A stretch of DNA of 64,000 nucleotides from a virus. The notes below the pieces were generated by a model. It saw nothing but the letters and a program-made list of their open reading frames with translations. It was not told where the DNA came from and did not search any database. Made by a program: the position numbers and the translations under genes. Positions 19,427 through 63,963 of the stretch are shown here, piece by piece (within the stretch, counting starts at the first letter, position 1; each line of letters starts with the position of its first letter). Where the stretch lies: the IMG/VR virus record IMGVR_UViG_3300031485_000046, one strand, 5' to 3'.

Positions 19427-19645
19427 TCATTTCGCCCGCTCCTCCCAGAACCGTCTGCGTCGCTCCTCCCTGTGACGCTTGATATTCTCCCGCACCCTCT
19501 GCGTGCGGGGCGGGAACGTGTTCAGATGGGTCAGCACCGGCTCCACGCTGACAGCTCTGCCGAATTCCCTCTCCCATTCCTGGGCGTAGATTTCCTCGTA
19601 GGATAACATTTCGCGAAATCTGAGCCCCGTGCATCGTCCGCTCAT
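19427..19645 (-). CDS. small basic hypothetical protein inside a GC-rich islet
   Basis: 72 aa ORF starting 1 nt after kdsB stop; local GC visibly about 60% versus ~40% surroundings; no recognised motif. Confidence 0.3.
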   Translation of the reverse strand: MSGRCTGLRFREMLSYEEIYAQEWEREFGRAVSVEPVLTHLNTFPPRTQRVRENIKRHREERRRRFWEERAK

Positions 19646-44682: not shown

Positions 44683-45363
44683 TTATTCTGCTACAAGAAT
44701 TTCTGCAAGAGATTCATCTAGTTTATATACCGCGTCCCATAACGCATTACAAAAATCATTGAATTCCTTCATAGCGGGAGGGTTCCCTCTAAGTTTGTAA
44801 ATATGTCGCCATTCTCGCATATTACCTGTAACAAGCATTTTTGTTGGAGTACATTCAGGCAATAGGTATTTAGCTGTATCATTCCCGTGCTTTTCTTGAA
44901 TCTTTTTTACAAGCTGGGTTCCTTTATACAACCAATCCAATACTTCTGCATCTTGTTCAATAGCTTCAGGAAGTATGAACCCAATAGGATTCTTAATGAT
45001 GGATTTAAGTGACCATCGTGTGCTTTGTACGGAAAAGGAAAGCAACCTATGCCGTGCAAATTGCTGAAGAAGAGCCCTAGAGATGTTAGAAACTTCCACG
45101 ACGAGGACAATGTGTTCTATCACACTTTCATGACCGTCTTTGATTCGTTTAAGGACATACTGTTTTGCTGTTTCCGTATCATACCCATCTTCTTTCCAGA
45201 ATACAATTAGGTCTTCATACTCATCAGTTATTGCAGGAAAAGCCTCTTGATTCACACAAATCTTAGATCCATGTAAAGCGTTTTGCAAAACAGTGGCATC
45301 TAACACTTTTACAGTCACAGGAAACTCTCTCATAAAATCATCACTCCTCTTACGTAAATACAT
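44683..45363 (-). CDS. thyX: FAD-dependent thymidylate synthase
   Basis: 226 aa; ThyX signature 'RHRLLSFSVQSTRW' (RHRxxSxxxxSxR). Confidence 0.85.
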   Translation of the reverse strand: MYLRKRSDDFMREFPVTVKVLDATVLQNALHGSKICVNQEAFPAITDEYEDLIVFWKEDGYDTETAKQYVLKRIKDGHESVIEHIVLVVEVSNISRALLQQFARHRLLSFSVQSTRWSLKSIIKNPIGFILPEAIEQDAEVLDWLYKGTQLVKKIQEKHGNDTAKYLLPECTPTKMLVTGNMREWRHIYKLRGNPPAMKEFNDFCNALWDAVYKLDESLAEILVAE

Positions 45364-45501
45364 ACGTATCCTTGGCGAATCCTTGCGTCAGGATCGCATT
45401 CTTTTAGAAAAGAGATATAGAATCATGTCTAAACTGTTTTTTATTGCAGGAAAGCGTATTATCCGTCAGAATGACGTGTGCCCATCCTGCGATGTTAAAT
45501 C

Positions 45502-46017
45502 CTAATAAGCACCCGACGTAAAACAGGAAGAAGCTATGCATATCAAATCTCCTATTGTTCCAGAGTTTTCTATAATATGGTCAAAACAGAATCCATCTAA
45601 TTCCGTTTCTGACGGATGATTCTTCTGTTCTTCTGTAAGACCATTATCATAGTTAGGACGTTCGATACGAACCGTAATCACTTTGTATCCATTCTTTTTT
45701 CCCCATTGTCGCATAATCTGGATCTCATTCAAATACCGGCAGTCTGTTATTGCTATTTGATTTGGATAACTGTTAGTCTCCAGCATGCGACAGACAAGAT
45801 TCACCCAAGTATCTCGATTATATTCCCTTACGGTAGAAGCAAGATCCTGTAGAAATTTACGACCTCGTTCATCTTTGTGCCCATTCCAACCCAACTTGAT
45901 AGCAAAATCCTTAAGCCGACCAGCAAAGGAATATTTATTGTACCCATCTAATCCTAACGCAAATGTATCTTTACCGGCTCTAGCTTTACCAGATATAAGA
46001 ATGATCGTTTTATTCAT
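45502..46017 (-). CDS. deoxynucleoside monophosphate kinase-like P-loop kinase
   Basis: 171 aa; P-loop 'ISGKARAGKDT'; size and context with thyX/dut. Confidence 0.55.
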   Translation of the reverse strand: MNKTIILISGKARAGKDTFALGLDGYNKYSFAGRLKDFAIKLGWNGHKDERGRKFLQDLASTVREYNRDTWVNLVCRMLETNSYPNQIAITDCRYLNEIQIMRQWGKKNGYKVITVRIERPNYDNGLTEEQKNHPSETELDGFCFDHIIENSGTIGDLICIASSCFTSGAY

Positions 46018-46252
46018 CCGAAGTATTACCTTTTTCTACAGAAGGTAAGGGTTCATTTGTTTGTGCTGGACTAAAACATTTAGCCAATGTGGGTAGTCCA
46101 TCTTCTTCTGCTACTTGCCGCATAATTTCCCGCAATTTCTGAGGCATGATTCTTGCCATGCTGATTACCTCACTTTCGTCAATAACATAGGAATATATAC
46201 TTTTACTTTTCTTCTTCCCCACCGTAGTGCCTCTTGCCGAGTATGGAAACAA
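46010..46252 (-). CDS. hypothetical small protein (likely starts at internal Met near 46159)
   Basis: Track ORF overlaps 3D-domain gene by 88 nt; internal start avoids the overlap. Confidence 0.3.
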   Translation of the reverse strand: MFPYSARGTTVGKKKSKSIYSYVIDESEVISMARIMPQKLREIMRQVAEEDGLPTLAKCFSPAQTNEPLPSVEKGNTSDE

Positions 46253-46581
46253 ATATCTATCTTGTTTCCAGTTATTCTTTTTCCTCTATCATCTACCCTG
46301 CGCCATCCAATGCCTTGCAAATGTACCCATGTACCAAATGGAATATATTTTGGTGCGGCAATTGTAACATCAGGTGTCGTTCGATTCCCGCTTGCTGTTA
46401 CTGTAGGATCTCCAGAATAACACATACCTTTAATTGCTTTAGGATCTAATGGAGCGTATCCTGTGGCAACCATTTCAATTGTCTTAGATAAAGGATACGA
46501 AAAAACGGGATGTACTGAAAGTAACATCCCGAAACCAAACATCATACTACCGAGAAGGAGGATCTTCTTTATCGACATCAT
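46165..46581 (-). CDS. secreted 3D-domain protein (MltA/RlpA-like fold)
   Basis: 138 aa; N-terminal signal-peptide-like hydrophobic segment; conserved Asp-containing 'ATGYAP', 'DPTVTASG', 'RVDDRG' pattern typical of 3D domains. Confidence 0.55.
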   Translation of the reverse strand: MMSIKKILLLGSMMFGFGMLLSVHPVFSYPLSKTIEMVATGYAPLDPKAIKGMCYSGDPTVTASGNRTTPDVTIAAPKYIPFGTWVHLQGIGWRRVDDRGKRITGNKIDICFHTRQEALRWGRRKVKVYIPMLLTKVR

Positions 46582-46708
46582 TCCAAAACTGGGTCATTTT
46601 CTTACCTACCCAAATGTACATTACGATAAGAGCAATAATGTACAATCCGATAAGTGTGCCGATAACCGTCAACAACCAAAATATCCACATAGGTAGATAT
46701 ATTGTCAT
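46547..46708 (-). CDS. small membrane protein
   Basis: Internal ATG at 46708 just after dut stop gives 53 aa with one transmembrane segment; track ORF 46547..46741. Confidence 0.35.
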   Translation of the reverse strand: MTIYLPMWIFWLLTVIGTLIGLYIIALIVMYIWVGKKMTQFWNDVDKEDPPSR

Positions 46709-46709
46709 A

Positions 46710-47180
46710 TCAGACACCTGTACTTCCAAAACCACCCGCACCTCTATCAGTATCCGTGAGGGAATTTACATACTCATTAAGCGCATGAACTACTGGAACC
46801 ACAACAGCTTGGGCGATTCTGTCACCATGCTCAATAATAATGTCTGGATCAGTTATCCACCCCGCATGTTCAATCAATACCTTTATTTCACCGCGGTAAT
46901 CAGAATCAATAGTGCCTGGGGCGTTTGGAATCCTTAGTTTTGTAGTAAATGACAGTCCTGATCTTGGGCGTATTTGCATTTCACAGCCTTCAGGTATTTC
47001 TACTGCAAGTCCTGTGGGAATAGCTTTAATCTGCCCAGGTTTTACCGTTATATTCCCGTCAGGGTACAGGAAAGGATCTGCTAGACATGCTTTTAGATCC
47101 ATCCCGCTTGCTCCTACAGACATATACTTAGGTGAAGTAGCTGCAGGGTCAAGCAGTTTCCACTTCAGGATAACAGTCAT
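46710..47180 (-). CDS. dut: dUTP diphosphatase
   Basis: 156 aa; dUTPase motifs 'GASGMDL', 'GTIDSDYRGEI', 'RIAQ'. Confidence 0.9.
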   Translation of the reverse strand: MTVILKWKLLDPAATSPKYMSVGASGMDLKACLADPFLYPDGNITVKPGQIKAIPTGLAVEIPEGCEMQIRPRSGLSFTTKLRIPNAPGTIDSDYRGEIKVLIEHAGWITDPDIIIEHGDRIAQAVVVPVVHALNEYVNSLTDTDRGAGGFGSTGV

Positions 47181-47191
47181 TATACTCCTCC

Positions 47192-47842
47192 TTATCTAAT
47201 CTGGAATGTTTTTGTAAATCCGTTTCTACTTTTGCACCATCCTACTAGCCAATAACAAAATGGTGTATCACTCAATGCGATCAATATTTTAACAACCCAC
47301 TGGCTCATTATCATGGAAAATAAAACAGGCATGGGCATAATTCCATAAAATGCAATAACGATAAAGATTACCGTATCGAAAAACTGGCTAGATATGGTAC
47401 CTACGTTATTTCTAAGCCACAAATGTTTTCCATGTGTTAAATCCTTTAGCTTATGAAATACCCATACATCATTCAGCTGGCTGACAAGATAAGCAGTCAA
47501 TGAAGCTCCAGTAATCCTACCAACTCTTCCAAAGAGTTCTGTAAAGAATTCCTGCCTCTCATAGAAAGGAGCGGCGGGAAGCATAACAGCGATAAACCCT
47601 AGTGACATAGCAAGCAGACTACAAAAGAATCCTGCCCATACAACCCTTGTAACTACTTTCTTACCCCATACCTCTCCAATCACATCAGTCATAAGAAAAG
47701 TAATTGGGTATGCGATAACACCTGCTGGTAGAATGAAATCCCCAAACATAAACAGTTTTGTTGCCAATACGTTTGCAGTTACCAACGATGTCACAAATAC
47801 TGCAACCAGTGTGATGAATGTTCTTGGAATCTTGAGTTCCAT
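47192..47842 (-). CDS. yhhQ: queuosine-precursor transporter, YhhQ/DUF165 family
   Basis: 216 aa polytopic membrane protein; segments 'MTDVIGEVWG', 'ASLTAYLVSQLNDVWVFHKLKD', 'SQFFDTVIFIVIAF' align with E. coli YhhQ (from memory). Confidence 0.7.
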   Translation of the reverse strand: MELKIPRTFITLVAVFVTSLVTANVLATKLFMFGDFILPAGVIAYPITFLMTDVIGEVWGKKVVTRVVWAGFFCSLLAMSLGFIAVMLPAAPFYERQEFFTELFGRVGRITGASLTAYLVSQLNDVWVFHKLKDLTHGKHLWLRNNVGTISSQFFDTVIFIVIAFYGIMPMPVLFSMIMSQWVVKILIALSDTPFCYWLVGWCKSRNGFTKTFQIR

Positions 47843-47857
47843 GCTGATACTCCTCCC

Positions 47858-48466
47858 TTAGATTACGGTACTTCGTCTTTTTCTGTTCTGTATCTGAAAT
47901 ACTTTATCCGCCGATTCAATCAAAGCATCAGAATGGGTAATCATGATAATTTGTAATCCGAGTTTGTCTGATACCTGTTTTAGCATCTCACTTGCTTTAG
48001 GTAGCAATCCTTCAGAAAGATTCTTGAATGGTTCATCCAGTAACAGCACATTCCGAGTTTTTGGCCGTTGCATAGACCATGATGCAACCCTAAGCGCAAA
48101 ACTAGCTACATCTACTGCACCACCTCCAGACGCTGATAAAGGATCTATCACCTGCTTTCCTCGTTGAAACATCAGATCACATTCAGTCTTACCTCTCCTT
48201 TGCACAAATTCTACCAACATACTGTATGGATCATCAAATACAGAATCAAGTGCCATCGAAACCGTATCTGCTATATGGTACTGCAACGATTGTTGTGTTT
48301 TCAATCCTACTTCCTTTACTACCGCTATCGCTTGTTCGTGCTTTCTTATTTCTCGGTGTGTTTCTGCTAATCCTTGTTTGGCAGTTTCTAATGACTGTTC
48401 AAGCTGTTCTTTCTGCCCTTTCAATCGTTCAAGCTGGATTCGCAATTGCCTTATCTCATTTTTCAT
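47858..48466 (-). CDS. Rad50/SbcC-like ATPase, C-terminal half (signature, Walker B, H-loop)
   Basis: 202 aa; coiled-coil N-terminus; 'LSASGGG' signature-like, Walker B 'VLLLDEP', H-loop 'ITHSD'. Confidence 0.7.
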   Translation of the reverse strand: MKNEIRQLRIQLERLKGQKEQLEQSLETAKQGLAETHREIRKHEQAIAVVKEVGLKTQQSLQYHIADTVSMALDSVFDDPYSMLVEFVQRRGKTECDLMFQRGKQVIDPLSASGGGAVDVASFALRVASWSMQRPKTRNVLLLDEPFKNLSEGLLPKASEMLKQVSDKLGLQIIMITHSDALIESADKVFQIQNRKRRSTVI

Positions 48467-48734
48467 TGTCTGAATATGATTGCGCTATTTCTTCAAGAAG
48501 CGAATCCAGTTTAGAGGAAACAGTATCCAAATTACTCTGGATTTTTGCAAGAGTTTTTTCCGCTTCTTCTAAATCCTTACAACCCCATTTTTCCGCTAGT
48601 TCTTTCAACATATAGTCTTTCTTGCCTTTTAATTCAGCTATTTTTGCTTTACCGTCTTCAATCTTCTTCTTTAGTACAAATAGTTCCTTTTCTGTCAGTT
48701 TAGAGGAGCGAATTGCCATCTTTATCACATCCAT
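48456..48734 (-). CDS. coiled-coil protein, probable part of split Rad50 C-terminal half
   Basis: 92 aa heptad-rich ORF overlapping the downstream ATPase ORF by 11 nt in a different frame. Confidence 0.45.
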   Translation of the reverse strand: MDVIKMAIRSSKLTEKELFVLKKKIEDGKAKIAELKGKKDYMLKELAEKWGCKDLEEAEKTLAKIQSNLDTVSSKLDSLLEEIAQSYSDNEK

Positions 48735-49023
48735 TCATATAGTTTTGGTACCGCCTACAATGGTCCTTTTTAACACAAGTATGGAAGCATATTTGAGCCG
48801 CAACCATACATTCTCTTGCAGTACACCACAAGAATTCTGTTTCATGCAAAGCAGCCAATTCCTCGAATCGTTTCATTCTGTTTCTGCTCAATACTTTAGG
48901 TTTTTCCCCGAATACCCACTGTCGAATCATAGGAGGATTAATTGTGCCGTTTACGGGAACTTCAACAATTCCTTTAGGTTTTTTTAGGAATTTACGAGTT
49001 TTCTTCTTAGCATACTTTTTCAT
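48700..49023 (-). CDS. hypothetical basic Cys-rich protein
   Basis: 107 aa; Lys-rich N-terminus and scattered Cys/His. Confidence 0.45.
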   Translation of the reverse strand: MKKYAKKKTRKFLKKPKGIVEVPVNGTINPPMIRQWVFGEKPKVLSRNRMKRFEELAALHETEFLWCTARECMVAAQICFHTCVKKDHCRRYQNYMNGCDKDGNSLL

Positions 49024-49922
49024 AGCACTTCACCATCCATCGCTTTATGGATAAGTGATATAACTGATTTTCTTAGTTTATTGGTTGAAAGAAATTCCCT
49101 TAGATTGTCTTCGAATGACAATGACACATTCCAGTCCTCCTTCAGGCGTGATATAAATGCTTCCATCCGCATATCTCTTTCTGCCTTTACCTCAAGATGT
49201 TCCTTTGTAATCACATCTGTCTTTATTGGTAGATATTCTGCGGTTACACTATTTGTTTCAGCAAACCATAAATATACCCTAGGTTTGTGTTCCGCCTGAT
49301 CCGCAGTTTGTCTTGTGATAGATCCAGGATTTACTAGCAATCTATCTTTATATTTTACCACAAAAGGTGTATGGTTGTCACCTGTCAATATTAATTTATA
49401 CTTAGAAAATTTTCTAAGTATTTGCTCCGCAGTAGGATCTGTACATCCTAGCCATGGTTTATTGCCTGTATATGTAAACTTGTGCCATACAGCAACATTT
49501 TCAAATGCACTACCTGCTAGTAGTTCTGAAATAGCCTCATTGGGTTTTTCTTCCCCCCAATGCCCATTTCTTAAAACTGTAATGTTATGTGCTGTACTTA
49601 AAGTATACATCCCAGACCGTTGTGCAAGTTCCATATTATGTTGTGGCAAATCGTGATTCCCGTATACCGTTAAAAAAGCAGGACCATTTTTGAATTCAGA
49701 AAACTGGTTGAAAAATGATATTGATGCAGAGAGTAAATAGGGTGATGTTTTCCATGTATGGAATAAATCTCCAGCATGGATAACAGGGCAACCATACTTT
49801 CTTTGCAATTCCATAATATAGTTCGCTTTTATCCATTGGGATTCCCAAAAATTATCAGTACGGCAGATTGGTTGTGTGTCTCTCAAATGCCAATCTGCCG
49901 TAAGAATTGCCGTAGGTTTCAT
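49020..49922 (-). CDS. sbcD: Mre11/SbcD-like nuclease (calcineurin-like phosphoesterase)
   Basis: 300 aa; metallophosphatase motifs 'DWHL', 'GDLFH', 'GNHD', 'GDNH'. Confidence 0.8.
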   Translation of the reverse strand: MKPTAILTADWHLRDTQPICRTDNFWESQWIKANYIMELQRKYGCPVIHAGDLFHTWKTSPYLLSASISFFNQFSEFKNGPAFLTVYGNHDLPQHNMELAQRSGMYTLSTAHNITVLRNGHWGEEKPNEAISELLAGSAFENVAVWHKFTYTGNKPWLGCTDPTAEQILRKFSKYKLILTGDNHTPFVVKYKDRLLVNPGSITRQTADQAEHKPRVYLWFAETNSVTAEYLPIKTDVITKEHLEVKAERDMRMEAFISRLKEDWNVSLSFEDNLREFLSTNKLRKSVISLIHKAMDGEVL

Positions 49923-50971
49923 TTCTTACCTCCTTTTTTACTGCCGCATAAAGGACAAGTATCTGGAAATAGCGCATCAAACTTTTCCTGAAGTTTATTA
50001 GTTTCTTGCACTATATTATACATATCCTCGTCATTTTCCTTTATGTTTGTGAAAAGAAGGTATACATCTTTTTTATTATCGTAAAGTGTTCTTAGGTTTT
50101 GAAACAATTCAATAGCATTGTCTACTTGCGTTTCCTTAATAGGAAATGCTTCAAGTTTTTTTAATGCTTGTGATACTGCTTTTATTTCTGAAACAATGTC
50201 TGAAGCTCGAAGGAAAGTGTGTTCCAGTTGCGTTTTTTCTTCACGCAAAGTAAAATACTCCGTTACTTTTTTATCTATAGCAAAAAGAGGTTCAAATTCT
50301 TCCATTTGTAAATCAACCTCTTCTATGACATCAATAATCCTACTCAATTCCATCAGGTCTTTGTCAAGTTTCTCTATCCTATTTTGAAGTTTCTCCGCAC
50401 GGATAATTTTCTTTTCCATTTCAGAAATATGATTAAACTTAATAAGGGAATTTTCATATTCCTCTATTTTGCTTTCGTATACCCGTACATCCTGATTTAA
50501 TTGCCTTTGCCACGATGCAAGTGTTTTCATTGTAGCATCAATAATGTCTAGGTGTGCGATCCTATTAAAATGAGCCGCTACCTCACCTGCACTAGAATCA
50601 AGTAAAAAGGGTCGGTCAAACTGCTGTTGCAGATTTACCTCGTCAATATTAAGGATTCGCACAACATCATCGGGAACATCTGTTTTGATAGCAGTCAGCT
50701 TGCTACCGTTTATTGTGTACCCATGTCCGCTATCATGTTTCCAACGGGTAATCTCGTTATCAGGTACTTGAATAGTAACAGAAGTATCTCCGCCCCAGTC
50801 AGAACGAAAAGCATCTCCTAAGGGTCTATTCCAAATAACCCATCGTAATGCTCTTAGGATAGCAGTCTTGCCAGAGTCTGAGGGGCCAATGATAGCATTG
50901 ACCCCTGCTTCAAACTCGAATTGGCTTTTCGTATGTGACTGGAAATTTCTTAGCTCCACTCGCTCAATCAT
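49919..50971 (-). CDS. Rad50/SbcC-like ATPase, N-terminal half (Walker A, coiled coil, CxxC zinc hook)
   Basis: 350 aa; Walker A 'GPSDSGKT'; long coiled coil; ends with 'CPLCGSKK' hook-like CxxC. Confidence 0.75.
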   Translation of the reverse strand: MIERVELRNFQSHTKSQFEFEAGVNAIIGPSDSGKTAILRALRWVIWNRPLGDAFRSDWGGDTSVTIQVPDNEITRWKHDSGHGYTINGSKLTAIKTDVPDDVVRILNIDEVNLQQQFDRPFLLDSSAGEVAAHFNRIAHLDIIDATMKTLASWQRQLNQDVRVYESKIEEYENSLIKFNHISEMEKKIIRAEKLQNRIEKLDKDLMELSRIIDVIEEVDLQMEEFEPLFAIDKKVTEYFTLREEKTQLEHTFLRASDIVSEIKAVSQALKKLEAFPIKETQVDNAIELFQNLRTLYDNKKDVYLLFTNIKENDEDMYNIVQETNKLQEKFDALFPDTCPLCGSKKGGKK

Positions 50972-54941: not shown

Positions 54942-55856
54942 TCAATTTTCTCCGCAAACAATAGAAAAACATGCAAACGTAAGTCCTGGAAATCCCGTAT
55001 TGTAGAACGGTTCTATGAACTGTTCCATAACTAGCCCTGCTTGCATGTTCTCTCCCTTAAGGAGAATCGTGTTGCAGTAGCTAAGAACCAGCCTGCGAAT
55101 TGACTCAGGATCTTGGTCTTTCAACTTAGTAAGAATTCCTGCCACTTTCTTCCAAGGTGCTTTTTGCATAAGAACACGGCATAATTCAATAGCATCTGAT
55201 TGTACCTCAGCCGCTCTCTTTGCAACTTCTATCCGCATTTCAGCGGGCACACCAAGCACCTGATCCAATATCTGCAACGCATTTCTTGGATGACCCTGAC
55301 TATCCATAATAATCTGTTCATACACTTCTTTAGTCAATTTATGTCCTTCTGTTTTTACAACAGAACGAAGCAAGGTCATCATTTCTGAATCTGTTAACTG
55401 TTTCACCTGATACTGTGAACATCTTCCTTTTATCGTAGCAATCAATTTCTGTGGATCTGTCGTAGCCAATATATAGTAAACATGTGGTGGTGTATCTTCC
55501 AACGCTTTTAGTAGTGCGGACTGGGCATCATTGGTTAGTCGATGAACTTCATCCAGTAACCACACTCTACATTTACCTGATAAAGGTTTATACTGCGATT
55601 GCCTGCGTATTTCCCTTACAGTTTCAATGCCTCGAAAATCAGCACTATCCACTTCCTTAAAATCATCTTCTGAACAACCAAGTTCCGTAGCGATGATTCT
55701 ACCAAGGGTAGTCTTACCACAACCGGTAGGGCCGTGCAGAAGATATGCATGAGGATGATCTTCTTTAGCCAGATCCGATTTGAGTGCCGCTACCACTTCT
55801 ACGTTGCCAACAACCTCGTCAAAAGTAGCTGGACGATATTTATGATAAAGGGACAT
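54942..55856 (-). CDS. clamp loader ATPase (DNA polymerase III gamma/tau / RFC-like)
   Basis: 304 aa; 'YRP..F.EVVGN', Walker A 'GPTGCGKTT', Walker B 'VWLLDEVH', sensor 'TT', 'GRC' box. Confidence 0.8.
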   Translation of the reverse strand: MSLYHKYRPATFDEVVGNVEVVAALKSDLAKEDHPHAYLLHGPTGCGKTTLGRIIATELGCSEDDFKEVDSADFRGIETVREIRRQSQYKPLSGKCRVWLLDEVHRLTNDAQSALLKALEDTPPHVYYILATTDPQKLIATIKGRCSQYQVKQLTDSEMMTLLRSVVKTEGHKLTKEVYEQIIMDSQGHPRNALQILDQVLGVPAEMRIEVAKRAAEVQSDAIELCRVLMQKAPWKKVAGILTKLKDQDPESIRRLVLSYCNTILLKGENMQAGLVMEQFIEPFYNTGFPGLTFACFSIVCGEN

Positions 55857-56262: not shown

Positions 56263-58080
56263 TTATTTGAAATGGTAATCTCCCTTCTCATTCCAAGAAC
56301 AATCAACAGGACACACTTCTGCTTCTACTTCCAAGGGTACATTTATCCAGCTCCAGTGCTTAGGTAAATCTTCACAAGTAATCCTATGAACAGTAGACGC
56401 AACCATATCTAATTCGTCAGGATGCACATCCAACACCATTGCGTCATGTATCTGTCCGATCAATCTGGATTTCCAGTTCTGTTCTCTGGATATCTTGTCA
56501 ACCTGAATGAACGACCATAACAGACAATGAAATGCACTTCCCTGAATAGGAATATTTATGCATTCATTCCTACGCATGATACCAGAACATCTGAATCCTG
56601 TGTACATGCTCACATACCCGTTTTTTTGATACCCTTCCCACCACTTGTCTTTCCAACGATTATACACTTTGAATCGCCTATTCCAAAAATCATCTTCAAT
56701 TTTCTTGATATGGTCCGTAAACTTATCGAAGGAATCTAGCTTGTTTGCAATCAAGTGGTCGGAAATATGACCTCCGTCATGCTCAATGCCTTCACCTTTC
56801 TTCCATTTGCCTTTAGATAATCCGCACCATTTACAAGCAATATTTTCGGCGCAGTTTACATAATAGTCACCATAGAACTGCGGAAATACAAATCCGTTCT
56901 TTGCCGCTTGCCTCATCATTTTATGCGATGGTATACTCTTGTCTAACTTATCAAGTACAAATATCTGACAAGCCATATCACCGTGCATATCCGATGAAGG
57001 ATCTTCAATGTACTTTCTCATAACAGGGTCATGATGGTAACACTCGCTGATTCTTACTTCCACTCCTGAATAGTCTATTTCAAGTAGCTGGTGACCTGGC
57101 TTAGGAAATATCGCTTTGCGAGTAATCTCCATAGCCTCTTTATCTCGCTTGGGAATATTTTGGAAGTTTATCCGCTCCGATGAATTATGTACGCATATTT
57201 GGTTCACGATAAAATTATGATATTTTTCCACTTCAATATCGTACACATCTACCGGCTCATCAAGGTACTCTATTGTGTGGTCTGTATGATTAGACAATAC
57301 CTTATTAGAAAGACGTGTATCTGATAACGCCCTCGCTTGCACGTATGTTCCATCTATTAGACGGATTTTGTGCTCAGGTGTCACATCTAAGTATCCTTTC
57401 CCACCTCCACCGTTTATAGAGTAATGGATTCGCACAACTTTCTTATGTCCTGTTTTGCCAGCCCATATAACTTTTTGAATAGAAGGGCGGAGTTTATCGT
57501 CAAAACAATACACATAATCACCCTTCTTTACATTTTCAATAGGGGTCCCTTCTGGTTGTGCTTCAAAATCTTTCATTACCAATACTTTAGATCCTTTAGC
57601 TACACAAGAGCGAAATGTCTTTACTGTATGCAAATTAAAGAAAGGATGCAAGTATCCGCCTACTTGTTCTCTTATGAAAGCATCCAGATACGTATCTCGC
57701 ACCTTTTTCAATTTGCGCATTTCCAAAATCCACTTTATCTCAGGAATATCAATCTGGGAAAGTGCTTCATCGTCTGTTGCACCCTTGCCAGATGGTGTCA
57801 ACTTTGCAGGGGTGATTTTCCTAACATTGTACAAAAGGTGTGCTAACTGCCAATTAGAATCAGGGTTAGCCTTAGCACCATACACCTTCGTCCAATGCAT
57901 ATAGAATTTAGTATCCCTGAGTTTTCTATCCAATCGTGCTATTTTTTTGTCAAGGTACTCTTTTTTCTTTAAGCAGTAATCAACATCAATCCGCATTCCT
58001 TCTTGTTCTGCCCTCGCAAAAGCAAGGATGCCATCTTGCAATAGCTGATATGCTTCAGGAAGATTAGGTGTCAGTTGCAT
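56263..58080 (-). CDS. polA: family A DNA polymerase, polymerase-domain subunit (intein-containing)
   Basis: Motif A 'LLEIDYSGVEVR', motif B 'RQAAKNGFVFPQFYG', motif C 'QIHDAMVLD'; SD AAGGAGGG 8 nt before ATG 58080 (track start 58107). Confidence 0.85.
   Translation of the reverse strand: MQLTPNLPEAYQLLQDGILAFARAEQEGMRIDVDYCLKKKEYLDKKIARLDRKLRDTKFYMHWTKVYGAKANPDSNWQLAHLLYNVRKITPAKLTPSGKGATDDEALSQIDIPEIKWILEMRKLKKVRDTYLDAFIREQVGGYLHPFFNLHTVKTFRSCVAKGSKVLVMKDFEAQPEGTPIENVKKGDYVYCFDDKLRPSIQKVIWAGKTGHKKVVRIHYSINGGGGKGYLDVTPEHKIRLIDGTYVQARALSDTRLSNKVLSNHTDHTIEYLDEPVDVYDIEVEKYHNFIVNQICVHNSSERINFQNIPKRDKEAMEITRKAIFPKPGHQLLEIDYSGVEVRISECYHHDPVMRKYIEDPSSDMHGDMACQIFVLDKLDKSIPSHKMMRQAAKNGFVFPQFYGDYYVNCAENIACKWCGLSKGKWKKGEGIEHDGGHISDHLIANKLDSFDKFTDHIKKIEDDFWNRRFKVYNRWKDKWWEGYQKNGYVSMYTGFRCSGIMRRNECINIPIQGSAFHCLLWSFIQVDKISREQNWKSRLIGQIHDAMVLDVHPDELDMVASTVHRITCEDLPKHWSWINVPLEVEAEVCPVDCSWNEKGDYHFK
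57184..57606 (-). other. mini-intein (141 aa, Hint domain only) in the 'TxRxSS' motif of the polymerase
   Basis: Residues C168..N308 of track ORF: block A 'CVAKGSKVLV', block B 'TPEH', block F 'VYDIEVEKYHNFIVN', block G 'CVHN' followed by Ser; flanks join to 'TFRS|SSERINFQNIP' like Pol I 'TGRLSSTDPNLQNIP'. Confidence 0.8.
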
Positions 58081-59342
58081 CCTATGTACCCTCCTTGCTG
58101 AATCCATCGCATTTGTTTAGATGCTAACCGGTAAGTGAACAAACTATCCATACCACAGTATATCAATAGTTTATTCCAAATATCAGATCCTACAGGAACA
58201 TCAAGCAATTTGTTCATGGAATTGCTATCTTTATCATCCGCCCCTTTAAGATATGGAGCGACCTCATCATCATACCCTGCTACACCAAAATTGATATAGG
58301 TTTGTATCTTCAATCCTGTGATGTCTGGTCTGTTATCAAGAATGTGTGTAGCCAACATAGTATCCCATATCCAGTTTTTTACTTCATACCCCAGAATATT
58401 TTGTGTCCATGTGTGTTCAAACTTCAGATTTTGGGCAATCTTTCCTATCTTGTCTGATTGCAAAATTTCCTTAAGCAGTCTATTTCCTTTCTTACTTTTA
58501 GGCATCCCAAAAACTATTGCATCTTCAGGATTACTACACATGGACATGCAGATGATTTTGTGCTTGCTTGTATCATGCGGTTTAAGGCCCGTCGTTTCAT
58601 AATCAATAGCAATAGAAAACGGAAACTTTCTAGAAAGAAACTCTTCAAAAATTCCTACTAGCTCACTTTCTGATTTTACTATCTTGATAGCCGTCATTTC
58701 ATCTGGATATGTTTGCATAGACATGTCCACTGTATTTAATGCCCTGTCAAGGTCCTGTTTCCATACTGTTCGATATTCCTGTGCATCTTGTTTTTCTACA
58801 AACTCTGGATGAAATATCGGGCAGATCCACGTATTGTATTTCCTATCTGGAATAGTAAATCCTCTCCATTTATTCATTCCACCTAAATTCTTTGTCCAGA
58901 TAGAACCTATCACGGAGTTTAATGCTAGTTCACCTACAAGAATTATCACTTTAGGTTTATACTGCTCAATAGTAGATAGCACTCTTCGTCGGCAACATTG
59001 AACTTCTTTTGTCCACGGATTGGTGGTTTCCTTGGACCCTGAAGCATAGCAAGACAAAGCAAAGAGATTCAGACAGTCTTTGAACAAATCAACGCCTCTA
59101 CGTTCAAATTCTCGCCTAAGCGTTGTTCCAAATCTGTCTTGCCACGGTTTGCCTACTCGATCATCTCTACTGCTTGGCATATCACCAATGACCATTATTT
59201 TCTTTTCAAATTCCCCGAATGGTGCCATTCTAGGAGACGAAATATCTTTATACAACCCACAAGAAGCGCAAGAGAAAGCCTTATTACCACTAGGCCTAGT
59301 TTTAGATTTAGTTTCTTCTACTGAAAAGAATCCACTAGCCAT
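58071..59342 (-). CDS. DNA polymerase N-terminal subunit: UDG-like (family 4-type) domain + 3'-5' exonuclease domain
   Basis: 423 aa; 'CASCGL' and 'FHPEF' UDG-family-4-like elements with degenerate motif A ('GDMPS'); Exo I 'IAIDYETTGL', Exo II 'NLKFEH', Exo III 'YCGMDSLFTY'. Confidence 0.75.
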   Translation of the reverse strand: MASGFFSVEETKSKTRPSGNKAFSCASCGLYKDISSPRMAPFGEFEKKIMVIGDMPSSRDDRVGKPWQDRFGTTLRREFERRGVDLFKDCLNLFALSCYASGSKETTNPWTKEVQCCRRRVLSTIEQYKPKVIILVGELALNSVIGSIWTKNLGGMNKWRGFTIPDRKYNTWICPIFHPEFVEKQDAQEYRTVWKQDLDRALNTVDMSMQTYPDEMTAIKIVKSESELVGIFEEFLSRKFPFSIAIDYETTGLKPHDTSKHKIICMSMCSNPEDAIVFGMPKSKKGNRLLKEILQSDKIGKIAQNLKFEHTWTQNILGYEVKNWIWDTMLATHILDNRPDITGLKIQTYINFGVAGYDDEVAPYLKGADDKDSNSMNKLLDVPVGSDIWNKLLIYCGMDSLFTYRLASKQMRWIQQGGYIGCN

Positions 59343-59346
59343 CTTA

Positions 59347-60354
59347 CTAACCTTTCATTTCTAGAACGCCAACATACTCCCAATTATCTCCTATGAACTT
59401 GATAGCGTTTTCACCAAGAATGCATTTTTTAAGCATTTTACTTACATCCTTAAGAAGTTCAGGACGAATAGTAAATTTCTTTTCCTCACCTTTATATTTC
59501 AGATTCATCTCTTCTTCAAACCAGCCAACTTCAGACTGACCACGAATAATCATGCGTTTGGGCTTGATAGTTATTGTTACAGCATTACTTTCTGCTTCAC
59601 TGGAAAAGATAGACGCACGGTCTAACACCTCTTCAATAGCTCTAGGCAATTCAAAATCCGCACCCTGCACATCCATATATTTCGACACATCTGGAAATGT
59701 ATCTCCGAAGAAAGTTCGGCAAGAATACTCCGTACCTTTCTCAGTCTTGAAATGAATCCACCCGTGCCCTTCTGCAATATGTGTGGGTACACATCCATTC
59801 AATCTCTTTATAGTGCTTGCTGGCAAAAGAAACGTAGACACAGGCATCTTTTCAGTTAACTTGTACACCATTATTCTATAACTGTCAGACGCTTCAACGG
59901 AACCTTTTTCTGTCACATTTACACAAGTAATGATCGGACGGCTCATATCATTGGAACAAGCAAAGGAAACAAATTTAAGCGCCTTCATAAGACCTTCAGG
60001 TACTTTCTTCCATTTGCTTTTCTCACCAATCGCTTCTAGAGGCATCCGTATCTTTTCTTGAAGAGTAAGTCCTGCTTTAGCTTTACCTGCTTTCATGCGA
60101 ACCTCAGAACCATTTGCCTCTATTTCTACATCATTGGTTTTCATTTTGCACAGCACCTGATAAAACTCGTCAGCCTTGATAGCACCCTCAAGCCCATCTA
60201 ATCCTTCCACAGGATGGGACACACTTATTTCGTCATTGAATGTCATTACTTTCCCATCCTTAAAAGCAAAGCAGGTAGACTGTTCAATGTGCTCCTTAGA
60301 CGCAAGACCGGGCTTCACTATTTCAAGAGCTTCCAGAATATCTTCCCTATTCAT
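59347..60354 (-). CDS. DNA sliding clamp (DnaN/beta-like)
   Basis: 335 aa; 'SRPIITCVNVTEKGSVEASDSYRIMVYKL' resembles DnaN domain-2 'RYYLNGM..VATDGHRLAV'; adjacent to polymerase. Confidence 0.6.
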   Translation of the reverse strand: MNREDILEALEIVKPGLASKEHIEQSTCFAFKDGKVMTFNDEISVSHPVEGLDGLEGAIKADEFYQVLCKMKTNDVEIEANGSEVRMKAGKAKAGLTLQEKIRMPLEAIGEKSKWKKVPEGLMKALKFVSFACSNDMSRPIITCVNVTEKGSVEASDSYRIMVYKLTEKMPVSTFLLPASTIKRLNGCVPTHIAEGHGWIHFKTEKGTEYSCRTFFGDTFPDVSKYMDVQGADFELPRAIEEVLDRASIFSSEAESNAVTITIKPKRMIIRGQSEVGWFEEEMNLKYKGEEKKFTIRPELLKDVSKMLKKCILGENAIKFIGDNWEYVGVLEMKG

Positions 60355-60941
60355 ATTATATCCACCCCTTTTGCCCTATTTCGTTTTACCTGCCGATGTA
60401 TAAGAAATGCAAACTGTTTATACATGTTAATAAAATTATACCCAACATGCTTTAGTTTGCCTTTCTGTATTTCCCACGGAGTGCATATCCTATCTGCTTT
60501 CTCCCATCGCATGTCAAGTACATATTTATCAAAAGGAATAAAATCGTATCGTTCCGCCCAATAAGAAGACATAAGCCCATTATTCAGAACAAGTACACAA
60601 AAATGGATGTCGTATTTACTGCATTTATTATACAATTCCTCACAACTATGCATTGTCTTGGGCAGATGCAGTCTAGGGTAATTACGAAGCTGGGAGTAAG
60701 ACTGCCTTATCCAGAATTTTACTGGAATTGTTGTCTGTTCATTTTTTAGTCCTACATCCACAATTAAACCAATCCCTGAGAACATGTTTTGCGTCTTACC
60801 GGGTAATTCACACCGCAACGGACTCATAGGCATATTAACTAATTTTTCAACATACCTGAGAACCATGCCGTTGTACTTATTTATATCTTCCTGCGGATTT
60901 CTTCCCTTAGTGTCTGATTCTACCTTGAACATCGGTTCCAT
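60351..60941 (-). CDS. hypothetical protein (between clamp and DpdA-like gene)
   Basis: 196 aa; no QueD/QueE/FolE signature recognised. Confidence 0.55.
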   Translation of the reverse strand: MEPMFKVESDTKGRNPQEDINKYNGMVLRYVEKLVNMPMSPLRCELPGKTQNMFSGIGLIVDVGLKNEQTTIPVKFWIRQSYSQLRNYPRLHLPKTMHSCEELYNKCSKYDIHFCVLVLNNGLMSSYWAERYDFIPFDKYVLDMRWEKADRICTPWEIQKGKLKHVGYNFINMYKQFAFLIHRQVKRNRAKGVDII

Positions 60942-60956
60942 ATTATGTTTCCCTCC

Positions 60957-61928
60957 TTATATAGTGAATAATCCTTTGCTTACTTGGAATTGAACTCCTT
61001 TGCGATATTCATTCACCCATTGCTCTAATCCTAGAATGTATCGGATGTTAATTTCACAACGAACATCAAAGGATTGAATCTCATCATACGTGTACCCATC
61101 ATCTTCAATCTGTTTTAATTTCCGAGGTGTAAGTACACCCATTCCTTTACTAGACCGTTGCTTCGATACACAAAACACCATCGGTTGCTTTGAATAATCA
61201 GGATTCTTGAATCCACCGATAGGGTACATGATAGAACCCCACGCGGCAACTATTCTCCAAGTAGCGGCATCAGCACTAGTAAAAGGTAGCGTTTTCAGCA
61301 CGGGCAACATCCATACTGCAAATCCGTGTGTTTTAACACGGATTCTATTTATATGGATGTAAGAAAATACTGACCGCATCCAAGATAGCCTAGATTGGAC
61401 ACTCATATCGTTTGCAGGTGACACTCCGATATAGTCAGTAAGTTCTACCATTTTGTGCAACCATTCCCAATCTTCTCCTTGATGGAAGACATGAATAGGA
61501 GTGATCCCTGCATCTTTCATCCTAAGAAGATTTTCGTATCCTTTCGCGGCCGCTGTATTGATAATTTTCTTATTCTCCGCAGTCTTCACTCGATTGAGAT
61601 GTGTAGAAGTACCAGGAGAACCGGGGATCACATCGAGGTTGACTACCCTCAACTTTTTATTATCATCCGCCGCTATTTGGATTGCCTCTTTAGCATAACT
61701 AATGTAGGCGTCAATGGGAATAGAATGACCTTTAGCCCATGCTGAAAACGCACCTGAATCAAGAATGATGTTTCCATTTAATGTAGGAACTTGTCTGCAC
61801 CATTCTTTAAGCTGTTTTGGATAGAGATAAGAAACCAGTCTGTTCGTAATCCGCCTGTTGAGTTCCTTACCGCGTTCTTCCTTAGGATTAAAAACAGGAC
61901 CGGCAAAATACAAACGGACTGGCTTCAT
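60957..61928 (-). CDS. dpdA: DpdA-like tRNA-guanine-transglycosylase-family DNA 7-deazaguanine transglycosylase
   Basis: 323 aa; 'ILDSGAFSAW' resembles TGT 'DSGGFQ' catalytic motif; adjacent to queF and queC. Confidence 0.65.
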   Translation of the reverse strand: MKPVRLYFAGPVFNPKEERGKELNRRITNRLVSYLYPKQLKEWCRQVPTLNGNIILDSGAFSAWAKGHSIPIDAYISYAKEAIQIAADDNKKLRVVNLDVIPGSPGTSTHLNRVKTAENKKIINTAAAKGYENLLRMKDAGITPIHVFHQGEDWEWLHKMVELTDYIGVSPANDMSVQSRLSWMRSVFSYIHINRIRVKTHGFAVWMLPVLKTLPFTSADAATWRIVAAWGSIMYPIGGFKNPDYSKQPMVFCVSKQRSSKGMGVLTPRKLKQIEDDGYTYDEIQSFDVRCEINIRYILGLEQWVNEYRKGVQFQVSKGLFTI

Positions 61929-61930
61929 TT

Positions 61931-62374
61931 TCAGTTACCTGTTCCGTCGTACTCGGCAATCACCGAAATATCAGTACCACCTCTGCGATTGAAATTAGCC
62001 TCTATTCGCATGTGGTACGGTTTGCAAGCGTTCGACAGATCGTCCAGTATTTTGTTTGTAACAGACTCCATAAACGCTCCGTGCTGACGATATGCTCCCA
62101 TGTATATCTTGAGTGCTTTCGTTTCCAAACAAAAATCCTTTGGAAAGTATCGAATCGTGATAGTGCCAAAATCAGGATTTCCTGTACGCGGACACAGACT
62201 GGAAAATTCCGTGAATACGAACTCCGTGGCGTATTGCCTGTCTTTGCACGGATTATCAAATACTTCAAGAAGAGCTGGATCTGGATTATTGTACCTGTCG
62301 TACGGTACGACTGTTCCGAGGTTTTTCAGATGGTCTACATTCACTTTTCTATCCATTGTTTGCACCCTCCTCAT
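61931..62374 (-). CDS. queF: NADPH-dependent 7-cyano-7-deazaguanine reductase (unimodular QueF)
   Basis: ~145 aa; catalytic-Cys region 'FSSLCPRTGNPDFGTITIRY' and QueF motif-like 'ETKALKIY'. Confidence 0.8.
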   Translation of the reverse strand: MRRVQTMDRKVNVDHLKNLGTVVPYDRYNNPDPALLEVFDNPCKDRQYATEFVFTEFSSLCPRTGNPDFGTITIRYFPKDFCLETKALKIYMGAYRQHGAFMESVTNKILDDLSNACKPYHMRIEANFNRRGGTDISVIAEYDGTGN

Positions 62375-63044
62375 AGAATACTGGGTCGATCAGATTGTTT
62401 TCTGCAAAGGCCTCAAGGCGTTCATAACAACTTCCACATTTTCCGCAAGGATTCGGTTGGTTCTTGTAACAAGTTCTTGTAAGGTGATATGGTGCGTTAT
62501 TTGCAATACCATACTGCACTATCTGACTTTTAGACATGTGAAGGAACGGTGCAAGTATATTCACATTTCTATCCGTACCAAGATAAATCGCTGTATCCAT
62601 TGCTTTATGAAATTCTGGGCGACAATCAGGGTAAATAGCATGATCGCCTCTATGAATTCCTATAGCAATATTCTCTATACCTTTTGACCACGCCATACCG
62701 GCTAGGATCGACAGGAACACTAGATTACGAGCAGGTACCACCGTCTGACTCATATTCGATGATTCATAGTGTCCTTCCGGTATTTCTCCACCGCTTAGAA
62801 GCAGACTAGATTCCATTCCAGTAAATGCTCCGGACAGGTCTACAACTTCGTAGGTCAATTCGCAAGGAACGGCAGACACATAATATTTCAATACTGCGTC
62901 TGCCGCTCTTCGTTCGTACACATTGTGTTTGCTACCGTACTGGAAATTTACACAATGGATTTTCTTGAATTCCTTGCGAATAAGCCAAGCAAGAACTGTT
63001 GCAGAATCCAGTCCTCCTGAGAAAGAAAGGACTGCGGAACGCAT
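62349..63044 (-). CDS. queC: 7-cyano-7-deazaguanine synthase
   Basis: Start at ATG 63044 (track ORF 62349..63188 carries an implausible Arg/Lys-rich extension); PP-loop 'SFSGGLDS'; zinc site 'CYKNQPNPCGKCGSC'. Confidence 0.85.
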   Translation of the reverse strand: MRSAVLSFSGGLDSATVLAWLIRKEFKKIHCVNFQYGSKHNVYERRAADAVLKYYVSAVPCELTYEVVDLSGAFTGMESSLLLSGGEIPEGHYESSNMSQTVVPARNLVFLSILAGMAWSKGIENIAIGIHRGDHAIYPDCRPEFHKAMDTAIYLGTDRNVNILAPFLHMSKSQIVQYGIANNAPYHLTRTCYKNQPNPCGKCGSCYERLEAFAENNLIDPVFYEEGANNG

Positions 63045-63045
63045 C

Positions 63046-63963
63046 TTACTTCTTCTTTCCAGCCTTCTTGCCAGCTTTCGCTTCCTTAGCCGGAGCGGTC
63101 TTTGCAGGCGCTTCCTTCTTTGCAGAAGCTTTCTTTTCCGCCATTTCTGCCTTCGCCTCCTTCTTTTTAGAAGATTTACTACCACCATCGTGCTTCACGA
63201 TTTCCTTAGTGATCTTACTGCCTTTCTCACACTTGATATCCGTGAACTTCACGATGTTGCCATCTTCCTTGTCAATGTAGATAAGCACAGGGAAGCGGCA
63301 ATATTTAGGATTAGTCCCATCAGAAAGAATTGTAGAAAGAGCGGCGATGGTTGCGTCGGGGAACTGCTTTGCCGCAAGTTCGATCAGATCCTTTTTGCTG
63401 TACCGACCCTCATTGATAAGGTCGATAAAAAATTCGATCCTTTTGGCAGTCTTATTGCCACCAAATATCTCATCCTTCGTTTTCGTGGGCTTATCAGATT
63501 TTGCAGGCTTTTCTGCCTTCGGAGCCTTAGCAGGCTTTTCTTCCTTGGCTTTACTCTTGCCCTTCTTAGGAATAGGAAGTACCTCTATTTCGTCTTCCTC
63601 TTCTTCCTCTACATCGTCACCGTCTTCGACATCTTCGTCCTCATCGCTTTCGTCCCCATCTTCCCCTTCCTCGTTGACCCCTTCATCGTCTTCGTCTTCA
63701 TCGTCAGCTTCTTCGTCCCCTTCGACTTCTTCCTCATCCGCATCCTCCTCGTCGGCATCCTCTTCCTCTTCATCAGCATACTTAGCCTGAATCTGTGCAA
63801 GAATATCCATCGTTTCCTCGGAAAGTCCATCCTCTTCGCTTACAGCTTCAGAAGCCTCAAGCAGTTCAGCTTCCAGTTCGTCAGTACCGAGCTTTACATC
63901 AATGGGAGGCTCGATAATAGTATTAATCTCCTTAGCCGCCTTAACCAGTTCACTTTTCTTCAT
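63046..63963 (-). CDS. hypothetical protein with ~70-residue poly-acidic tract and Lys/Ala-rich histone-H1-like C-terminus
   Basis: 305 aa; D/E run about 63560..63780; C-terminal 'KKEAKAEMAEKKASAKKEAPAKTAPAKEAKAGKKAGKKK'. Confidence 0.6.
   Translation of the reverse strand: MKKSELVKAAKEINTIIEPPIDVKLGTDELEAELLEASEAVSEEDGLSEETMDILAQIQAKYADEEEEDADEEDADEEEVEGDEEADDEDEDDEGVNEEGEDGDESDEDEDVEDGDDVEEEEEDEIEVLPIPKKGKSKAKEEKPAKAPKAEKPAKSDKPTKTKDEIFGGNKTAKRIEFFIDLINEGRYSKKDLIELAAKQFPDATIAALSTILSDGTNPKYCRFPVLIYIDKEDGNIVKFTDIKCEKGSKITKEIVKHDGGSKSSKKKEAKAEMAEKKASAKKEAPAKTAPAKEAKAGKKAGKKK

Follow-up and report, generated by a model that had tools for sequence, protein, structure and literature searches.

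What does a domain of the uracil-DNA glycosylase (UDG) type do in a phage replicase once the residues that recognize uracil have been replaced? The question is raised by a gene of the IMG/VR virus record IMGVR_UViG_3300031485_000046, a 64,000-nucleotide stretch of DNA that we call the window. This gene, UDG-exo, codes for the proofreading subunit of a PolA-type polymerase. The original prediction, made from the letters alone, had pointed out a degenerate, family-4-like UDG domain at the N terminus of the subunit. It had proposed that the domain reads modified bases or senses errors rather than removing uracil, in a phage that appears to modify its DNA with 7-deazaguanine and encodes a dUTPase.

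The three motifs on which that proposal was built are present (CASCGL at residues 25 to 30, GDMPS at 53 to 57, and FHPEF at 177 to 181). Their spacing is indeed that of family 4, as 26 residues lead from C28 to D54 and 124 from D54 to H178, compared with 23 and 114 in UDGa of T. thermophilus (numbering of PMC5387724). Profile searches put the resemblance well above chance. The Pfam model PF03167 matched residues 41 to 191 with an E value of 1.9e-13 (51.1 bits for a cut-off of 24.3), and the family-4 model TIGR00758 (UDG_fam4) matched with E = 5.9e-14 and a score of 52.1 bits, for a curated cut-off of 125.3. Family-4 models, including Arch_udg (E = 6e-13), were the top NCBIfam matches, all far under their curated cut-offs. 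In phmmer searches of the PDB, UdgX and the T. maritima UDG were matched at E ~2e-10 and the family-4 UDGs, including that of T. thermophilus, at 1e-7 to 1e-10; the UDG-PolA of phage phiLo (9qhs) was also returned, weakly (E = 1.8e-5). A profile of the whole family matched the T. maritima structure 1l9g at E = 4.5e-24.

Structure prediction agreed with the profiles. The AlphaFold2 model of residues 1 to 212 had a mean predicted local distance difference test score (pLDDT) of 85 and a predicted template modelling score (pTM) of 0.82. Far from showing no similarity, it was matched by Foldseek to UdgX and to the family-4 UDGs of T. maritima, T. thermophilus, and S. tokodaii with E ~1e-13 and template modelling (TM) scores of 0.7 to 0.8; the alignment to the T. 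maritima enzyme covers 179 to 182 columns (TM 0.8). A significant PF03167 profile together with the fold places the domain in the UDG superfamily. It does not read as a UdgX: it scored 38.9 bits with the UdgX model TIGR03914, below the threshold of 189.95, and when it is aligned with UdgX variants, Thr stands at the position of the cross-linking His109 and the extended KRRIH loop is shortened. The C-terminal half contains a PolA-type 3′-5′ exonuclease domain (PF01612, residues 220 to 409; E = 1.9e-12) whose DEDDy residues are invariant across the aligned homologs (set A1), showing that the exonuclease is intact and that the UDG domain is fused to the exonuclease subunit, as had been claimed. 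The boundary first put at position 58700 was essentially right, but 58707 is better, since the domain ends near residue 212. Thus, residues 1 to 212 of the proofreading subunit are a genuine UDG-type domain.

The alignment of the family profile to solved family-4 UDGs maps its columns onto E41, G42, E47, F54, N80, N89, and H155 of the T. thermophilus enzyme (Tth). The putative Fe-S ligands are all preserved: C25, C28, C98, and C117 align with Cys residues of 1l9g and of the T. thermophilus structure 1ui0. The first two are invariant in set A1, and all four occur in essentially all full-length homologs and IMG/VR loci. The pocket, in contrast to that of stand-alone family-4 enzymes, is made up of D54, M55, D60, W67, F94, T107, and H178. 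GDMPS replaces the canonical GE(A/G)PG of motif A. In NLFALSCYA, the counterpart of NINAxNCRP, F94 stands where strand beta2 should end in the Asn that reads uracil (Tth N80), and Y99 takes the place of the Arg of CRP. Motif 3 reads TT-NP instead of NRxP, with T107 at the position of Tth N89 and the following Arg deleted. Of the key residues, motif B retains H178, the equivalent of the leaving-group stabilizer Tth H155. The window protein therefore has none of three features of family 4, i.e., the GE(A/G)PG motif, the base-reading Asn, and the motif-3 Asn. The degeneration reaches past motif A to F94 and T107, and is stronger than the original prediction had realized.

In T. thermophilus UDGa, single substitutions at the equivalent positions are costly: H155S lowers activity ~2500-fold, E41Q ~900-fold, G42D ~90-fold, and N80A ~40-fold (PMC5387724). 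Because the Glu, the Gly/Ala, and both Asn residues are replaced, and because the His is not constrained among close relatives (see below), it is reasonable to infer that uracil excision has been lost or strongly reduced.

We compared the window protein and its closest relatives (the window clade, 15 to 16 sequences, 59 to 97% identical) with 105 canonical relatives, which share 44 to 52% identity with the window protein. Motif A reads GEAPG in 83 of these 105, and the Glu, Asn, and His equivalent to E41, N80, and H155 are present in 100, 104, and 99 of them, respectively. In the clade, neither the Glu (0/15; Asp in 11, Gly in 4) nor the Asn (0/15; Phe in 9, Tyr and His in 3 each) is found. 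The G42 position, Gly or Ala in canonical relatives, is Met or Phe, and the CRP motif reads CYA, CHA, or similar. The motif-B His is present in seven sequences, with Ser in six and Asp in three; Ser or Asp thus occupies this position in 9 of 16 sequences, including relatives of 59 to 81% identity. This distribution indicates that the His position is not under constraint. The four Cys residues are retained by canonical relatives and by the clade alike.

The pocket as a whole follows the same pattern. In the canonical relatives, its columns are significantly more conserved than the domain average (P = 0.003), an excess that is not significant within the clade (P = 0.22). The eight sites at which the clade and the rest are each conserved, but for a different residue, all fall in the UDG domain, as do nine of the ten relaxed sites, conserved in the rest and variable in the clade; site 392 alone is in the exonuclease domain. 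The differing and relaxed sites of the UDG domain cluster around motif A, strand beta2, and motif B. With TIGR00758, the canonical relatives score 84 to 97 bits (also under the cut-off) and the clade 33 to 52. The predicted inactivation is recent and specific to the clade, inside an otherwise canonical family.

Nevertheless, the domain is under purifying selection. Between the window and its 97%-identical relative, the ratio of non-synonymous to synonymous substitution rates (dN/dS) is 0.148 for the UDG domain, with 17 synonymous and 10 non-synonymous differences, compared with 0.104 for the exonuclease domain. Inside the clade, its conservation comes close to that of the exonuclease domain (mean pairwise identities of 0.685 and 0.705). 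The conservation of the fold and of the Cys residues together with the low dN/dS indicates that the domain is still selected, though not for uracil recognition.

Since the pocket has been dismantled yet the fold, the Cys residues, and purifying selection have been kept, the most likely explanation is that the UDG domain is a pseudo-glycosylase, which would serve a split UDG-PolA without catalysis, as a structural part or as a guide for the template. We give this reading a probability of about 0.6. The domain would descend from an active family-4 UDG. In the canonical relatives it would be positioned in front of the polymerase site, on the 5′ template strand, and excise template uracil, as do the UDG domains of phiLo and YerA41, which by cryo-electron microscopy (cryo-EM) and assays remove template uracil ~5 nucleotides ahead of that site; contact between the UDG domain and the 5′ template is seen in the cryo-EM structure of phiLo (Missoury et al., bioRxiv 10.1101/2025.03.26.645540). 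In the window lineage, the changes of Glu to Asp, Gly/Ala to Met, base-reading Asn to Phe, and motif-3 Asn to Thr would have taken the uracil pocket apart, and the constraint on the His would have gone, with the fold, the four Fe-S Cys residues, and purifying selection kept throughout. One retained role may be to pack between the exonuclease and polymerase parts, possibly aiding the assembly of the two polypeptides; another may be to guide the single-stranded template.

This role is proposed after phiLo and the N4-like polymerases. The UDG domain of the N4-like PolAs (cluster #17) is inactive, without conservation of its catalytic residues; it is sandwiched between the exonuclease and polymerase domains, and a structural or processivity role has been suggested for it (Czernecki et al. 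2023, PMC10201439). We argue by analogy because UDG-exo does not superpose rigidly on phiLo. phiLo was the top Foldseek match for the model of full-length UDG-exo, over both domains (E = 4e-14).

Several observations weigh against a non-catalytic structural module. The rigid fit of the full UDG-exo model to phiLo gave a TM score of 0.32 over 446 columns and a root-mean-square deviation of 17 Å; given this poor fit, we do not claim that the two share the same domain arrangement. A processivity role is not needed, as a clamp and its loader are encoded by the phage itself. Among the residues still present in the window protein are an acidic one (D54), the aromatic that stacks (W67), and the key H178, and residual glycosylase activity is possible. 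Lastly, motif A of the clade is fixed on a new consensus, IMVIGxMPSxRDD, which contributes to the eight conserved-but-different sites; this exceeds pure drift and may point to a new interaction.

The last point leads to the first alternative, namely that the pocket has been remodelled for a new specificity. The domain might then recognize a flipped template base without catalysis, be it uracil, an abasic site, or a derivative of 7-deazaguanine, or it might act on some other lesion as a glycosylase, with feedback on proofreading or synthesis. The fixed positions of the new motif A (M50, V51, M55, S57, D60, and D69) and a more hydrophobic or aromatic pocket (M55, W67, and Phe, Tyr, or His at position 94) fit this possibility, as does the presence of a DpdA-like gene and an adjoining 196-residue gene in all clade members with upstream sequence. 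However, the would-be pocket positions 94, 99, and 178 are the most variable in the clade. This drift of the catalytic His and of the base-reading Asn argues against a new glycosylase specificity, and glycosylase function is unlikely without a constrained leaving-group residue.

The 7-deazaguanine version of this proposal was examined by scoring the 10 kb upstream of the gene wherever the upstream sequence of a locus reached 4.5 kb or more, in statistics without phylogenetic correction. A DpdA homolog was found at 22 of 35 loci with a canonical domain and at 10 of 17 with a degenerate one (Fisher P = 1.0); with the clade set aside, the latter count is 5 of 12 (P = 0.31). Thus, canonical domains routinely coexist with DpdA/Que genes at the equivalent place, and degenerate ones occur without it nearby (loci L036, L055, L067, and L080), which leaves the deazaguanine connection unsupported. 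We therefore rejected a link to DpdA/Que genes as the cause of the degeneration. Our literature search found nothing relevant linking DpdA with UDG and polymerase. Of the original proposal, the departure from uracil excision stands as reasonable from the residues, but the 7-deazaguanine reader finds no comparative support, even though the context cited for it is present (dUTPase, QueC, a QueF-like protein, a DpdA-like transglycosylase, and a YhhQ-type transporter). On balance, we regard a new specificity as unlikely.

A working UDG is similarly unlikely, and we place it just below. It would remove template uracil ahead of the polymerase, like the SP15-like enzymes phiLo and YerA41, by means of D54, H178, and a slightly altered pocket. 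The retention of these two residues along with D60 and W67, a fold that is intact and under purifying selection, the lack of any other UDG in the window, and the control of dUTP by a dUTPase and ThyX are all compatible with it. On the other side of the balance, the Asn that reads N3 and O4 of uracil has become Phe, Gly/Ala42 has become Met, and N89 has become Thr, with the next Arg deleted. Moreover, Glu, Asn, and His are unconstrained in the clade, where the substitution of the His by Ser or Asp in 9 of 16 sequences recalls the ~2500-fold effect of H155S, and the pocket columns are no longer extra-conserved.

More speculatively, the remodelled motif A and the aromatic residue in place of the Asn might form a non-catalytic "read-ahead" pocket that senses a flipped template base and modulates the switch between the polymerase and exonuclease subunits. 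We consider this improbable; if true, bacteriophage PolAs would have a counterpart to the pocket with which archaeal family B polymerases sense uracil. Finally, a functionless, decaying remnant on its way to deletion is very improbable. The catalytic residues are gone, and the conservation of the UDG domain relative to the exonuclease domain drops, from mean pairwise identities of 0.61 and 0.49, respectively, in canonical relatives to 0.685 and 0.705 in the clade. However, dN/dS is 0.15, more than 15 independent clade sequences showed neither frameshifts nor truncations, the four Cys residues are kept throughout, and the domain persists in every recurrent degenerate lineage and in N4-like polymerases.

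Pocket loss in the context of a retained domain is not limited to the window clade. A public protein search identified 906 homologs with E <= 1e-5; nearly all of the 120 that were listed are 400 to 430 residues long and have both the UDG and exonuclease domains. IMG/VR contributed another 532 confirmed loci; 80 of them were retained and, together with six others, scored for UDG motifs and for DpdA/Que genes. Outside the clade, Glu, Asn, and/or His were also lost in about 15 of 69 unique loci (including L036, L048, L055, L067, L076/L078, L080, and L085), and the Cys residues and the domain were always retained in those cases. By the alignments, the catalytic residues have thus been lost recurrently and independently outside the clade. 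One of these degenerate calls, for locus L043 (P0052; IMGVR_UViG_3300036761_001362), is an alignment artefact caused by an intein. The domain of L043 is canonical, with a large intein containing an endonuclease-like insert exactly inside motif A (GEAPG / intein / SEEDRRGKQW). Since sites critical for function are the usual targets of inteins, this insertion fits the importance of motif A where it is canonical.

As several lineages have lost the site yet kept the domain and the Cys residues, a dispensable catalytic role appears separable from a conserved structural one. The family, made up mostly of uncultured phages, thus represents a natural experiment on the purpose of the UDG domain in phage UDG-PolA replicases. 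It provides matched active and inactive pairs with which the part of the domain in template handling or subunit assembly can be addressed. As to annotation, the label "uracil-DNA glycosylase family 4," carried by some source names, is unfit for such genes.

The UDG-exo subunit is one half of a polymerase split in two. The thumb, palm, and fingers are encoded by the next gene, whose open reading frame (ORF) is listed as 56263..58107. Its start at 58107 is probably nine codons too long, the probable start being the ATG at 58078..58080 (M10 of the listed ORF), seven nucleotides after the Shine-Dalgarno (SD) sequence AAGGAGG. The UDG-exo stop codon lies at 58071..58073, and the polymerase gene starts at 58080 in another frame. 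The two genes therefore overlap by 10 nucleotides, 58071..58080 (ATGCAACTGA), and an overlap of the same length is found in a 77%-identical relative (L002). The overlap and the SD sequence suggest translational coupling of the two polymerase subunits. The polymerase subunit also contains a mini-intein, which runs from Cys168 to His-Asn308, is followed by Ser, and sits before the conserved ERINFQNIP motif; in L002 the polymerase is intein-free and has 464 residues. The window enzyme thus amounts to ~887 residues in two chains (423 + 464 after intein removal).

A fused protein of 876 residues occurs in 2 of 78 unique loci (L015 and L063), and the split form is the majority. Window UDG-exo residues 4 to 416 align to residues 18 to 424 of the L015 protein, and residues 7 to 477 of the intein-free polymerase to residues 416 to 873. 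As both ORFs are collinear with the fused relatives, the arrangement in the window results from gene fission at the exonuclease/polymerase junction. The domain order UDG, 3′-5′ exonuclease, and polymerase is kept, across two ORFs instead of in a single polypeptide. We considered a programmed frameshift or an assembly error as the origin of the split and rejected both, because the junctions differ among relatives (10-nucleotide overlap, 4-nucleotide overlap, in-frame stop, or inserted ORFs), the homologs are mostly 400 to 430 residues long, and the polymerase gene has its own SD sequence. Fission of this kind has been reported only in T7-like cyanophages (Czernecki et al. 2023, PMC10201439), and our data extend it from those PolAs to UDG-PolAs. 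The fused loci L015 and L063 should help to date and orient the fission.

UDG-PolA fusions, inactive UDG domains, and exonuclease/polymerase fission have each been described before; their combination is new, which is a modest advance. The N4-like PolAs come closest in one respect, as they too are phage PolAs with an N-terminal family-4 UDG fold that lacks the conserved catalytic residues. However, their UDG domain has lost a helix and a beta-hairpin, whereas that of the window aligns over ~180 residues to the T. maritima UDG with a TM score of 0.8, and they are single polypeptides of 800 to 900 residues, whereas UDG-exo and the polymerase are encoded by separate genes. No N4-like phage was found among 62 tblastn matches with E <= 1e-5. 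Both tblastn and the structure of the UDG domain thus set the window protein apart from this group.

The SP15-like enzymes (phiLo and YerA41; PDB 9qhs) have the same domain order, and the canonical relatives of the window protein share the catalytic Glu, Pro, and His with phiLo (E53, P55, and H178). They differ in their length of 1142 to 1306 residues, their inserts 1 and 2, their C-terminal domain, their active UDG, and their occurrence in phages with hypermodified thymidine. The window protein lacks the catalytic Glu and Asn, and its phage encodes ThyX and a dUTPase instead of a hydroxymethyl-dU pathway, placing it outside this class.

The UDG domain fused to the family A polymerase of phage SPO1 has long been noted, and a processivity role was proposed for it (PMC3201878). 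SPO1-like polymerases (SPO1, SP-10, and other Herelleviridae) are 22 to 24% identical to UDG-exo over 91 to 98% of its length, the highest coverage among cultured phages. These UDG-PolAs are the historical source of the name "phage SPO1 DNA polymerase-related protein" for family-4 UDGs. They are very distant from the window protein, fused, and reported to have conserved UDG catalytic residues, a state that we take from PMC10201439, as the N-terminal motifs of SP-10 were unreadable in our MAFFT alignment. Their genomes replace T with 5-hydroxymethyluracil (5-hmU), and a dUMP hydroxymethylase gene adjoins the SP-10 polymerase gene.

The closest cultured relative, identified by tblastn, is Edwardsiella phage vB_EpM_ZHS (OM621816, ZHS_59), with a protein identity of only 26% (E = 2e-18). 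It shares the synteny, with FolE, a DpdA-like transglycosylase, a clamp, a UDG-PolA, and a clamp loader in this order. Its UDG domain similarly lacks the canonical Glu and His (GSAPS in motif A, and ILYPNF with Tyr for the motif-B His), but its polymerase is distant and fused, with 876 residues. We found nothing relevant in the literature on the biochemistry of this polymerase. As an isolated phage of 71 kb (L087, OM621816 36354-45454), ZHS is a possible culturable model for the inactive domain. With 22 to 26% identity to the SPO1-like and ZHS polymerases, the window family is a lineage of its own, and a megablast search with a 24-kb part of the window found nothing similar in 50,697 phage records.

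The split PolAs of T7-like cyanophages (S-SBP1-like, cluster #5) share adjacent, separate genes generated by fission. Their exonuclease subunits have no UDG domain and belong to another PolA subfamily, and the likeness is thus one of architectural principle only. Stand-alone family-4 UDGs (T. maritima TM0511 and T. thermophilus UDGa) and UdgX share the fold, the four-Cys motif, and the motif order with the window domain, which differs by replacements of the Glu-Gly/Ala doublet of motif A, of the base-reading Asn, and of the Asn in motif 3.

The features of the window are collected in Table 1. The succession of clamp, UDG-exo, polymerase, and clamp loader is conserved across the related loci recovered and in phage ZHS; four homolog contigs share it as a module with a separate polymerase gene. 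Beyond the clamp loader, UvsY-like, SSB-like, RecA, PDDEXK, and SbcCD genes follow downstream. The window also encodes ThyX, a dNMP kinase, and terminase, portal, and capsid proteins.

Table 1. Position of the UDG-exo gene, its domains and motifs, and other features of the window.
Feature	Position	Strand	Basis or remark
UDG-exo ORF, 423 residues	58071..59342	-	End includes the stop codon
UDG-like domain of family-4 fold, residues 1-212	58707..59342	-	Pfam, AlphaFold2, Foldseek, dN/dS
3′-5′ exonuclease domain, residues 213-423	58071..58706	-	PF01612; DEDDy D247, E249, D327, Y395, D399
CASCGL with C25 and C28	59253..59270	-	Aligns with the first two Fe-S Cys
Motif A, GDMPS	59172..59186	-	D54 = Tth E41, M55 = Tth G42
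Strand beta2 and Cys motif, NLFALSCYA, residues 92-100	59043..59069	-	Alignment
C98	59049..59051	-	Aligns with the third Fe-S ligand Cys of family-4 UDGs
C117	58992..58994	-	Aligns with the fourth Fe-S ligand Cys of family-4 UDGs
Motif B, FHPEF	58800..58814	-	H178 = Tth H155
PolA polymerase subunit (thumb, palm, fingers)	56263..58080	-	PF00476, E = 6.6e-38
Mini-intein of the polymerase subunit, 141 residues	57184..57606	-	PF14890, TIGR01443
Sliding clamp, Pol III beta-like, immediately upstream of UDG-exo	59347..60354	-	phrog_947, E = 3.8e-37
Clamp-loader ATPase, downstream of the polymerase	54942..55856	-	PF13177, E = 1.1e-24
dUTPase	46710..47180		Part of the nucleotide-metabolism context
7-Deazaguanine module: DpdA-like, QueF-like, QueC, YhhQ/Vut_1 transporter	44683..47842 and 60957..63188	-	DpdA-like: phrog_887, E = 1e-41
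196-residue ORF between the DpdA-like gene and the clamp	60351..60941	-	Clade-specific
QueC ORF	62349..63188	-	
305-residue protein preceding QueC	63046..63963	-	
SbcC-like ATPase in two ORFs	47858..50971	-	AAA_23 N-terminal part 49919..50971; SMC_N C-terminal part 47858..48466
SbcD-like phosphoesterase	49020..49922		
CMP-sugar cytidylyltransferase	19642..20436	-	PF02348, E = 1.5e-56
Sigma-70 region-2-like protein	5767..6360	-	
SNF2-family helicase	6542..8569	-	N-terminal DUF6011
DnaG-type primase	4890..5798		

Homologs of FolE, QueD, and QueE, which are encoded by two relatives (L003 and L004), were not detected in the window, suggesting that its 7-deazaguanine module relies on host or imported precursors. 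The QueF-like gene was not detected in the 77%-identical relative (L001/L002). The QueC ORF opens with an Arg/Lys-rich stretch of ~48 residues that overlaps the preceding gene, and its true start is probably near M49. The 305-residue protein encoded by that preceding gene has a long Asp/Glu-rich tract and a Lys/Ala-rich tail, with no family match.

The 196-residue gene was found only in the clade with degenerate UDG domains (the window, L001, L002, and L005 to L008), apart from one weak match in L043. Searches of Pfam, PHROG, and the PDB found no match for its product, nor did profiles show any resemblance to UDG. A scan of the six frames of the window with a family-4 hidden Markov model and the signature motifs returned UDG-exo alone. 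We therefore rejected the idea that a UDG encoded elsewhere in the window replaces the domain in trans.

Other genes of the window deserve mention. The two pieces of the SbcC-like ATPase are separated by the SbcD-like phosphoesterase gene and two small ORFs. The CMP-sugar cytidylyltransferase gene sits within the block of structural genes, on the strand opposite to theirs, and is possibly an auxiliary gene for surface-sugar metabolism. The sigma-70-like and SNF2 genes are located in an early or replication region, where the primase gene adjoins them.

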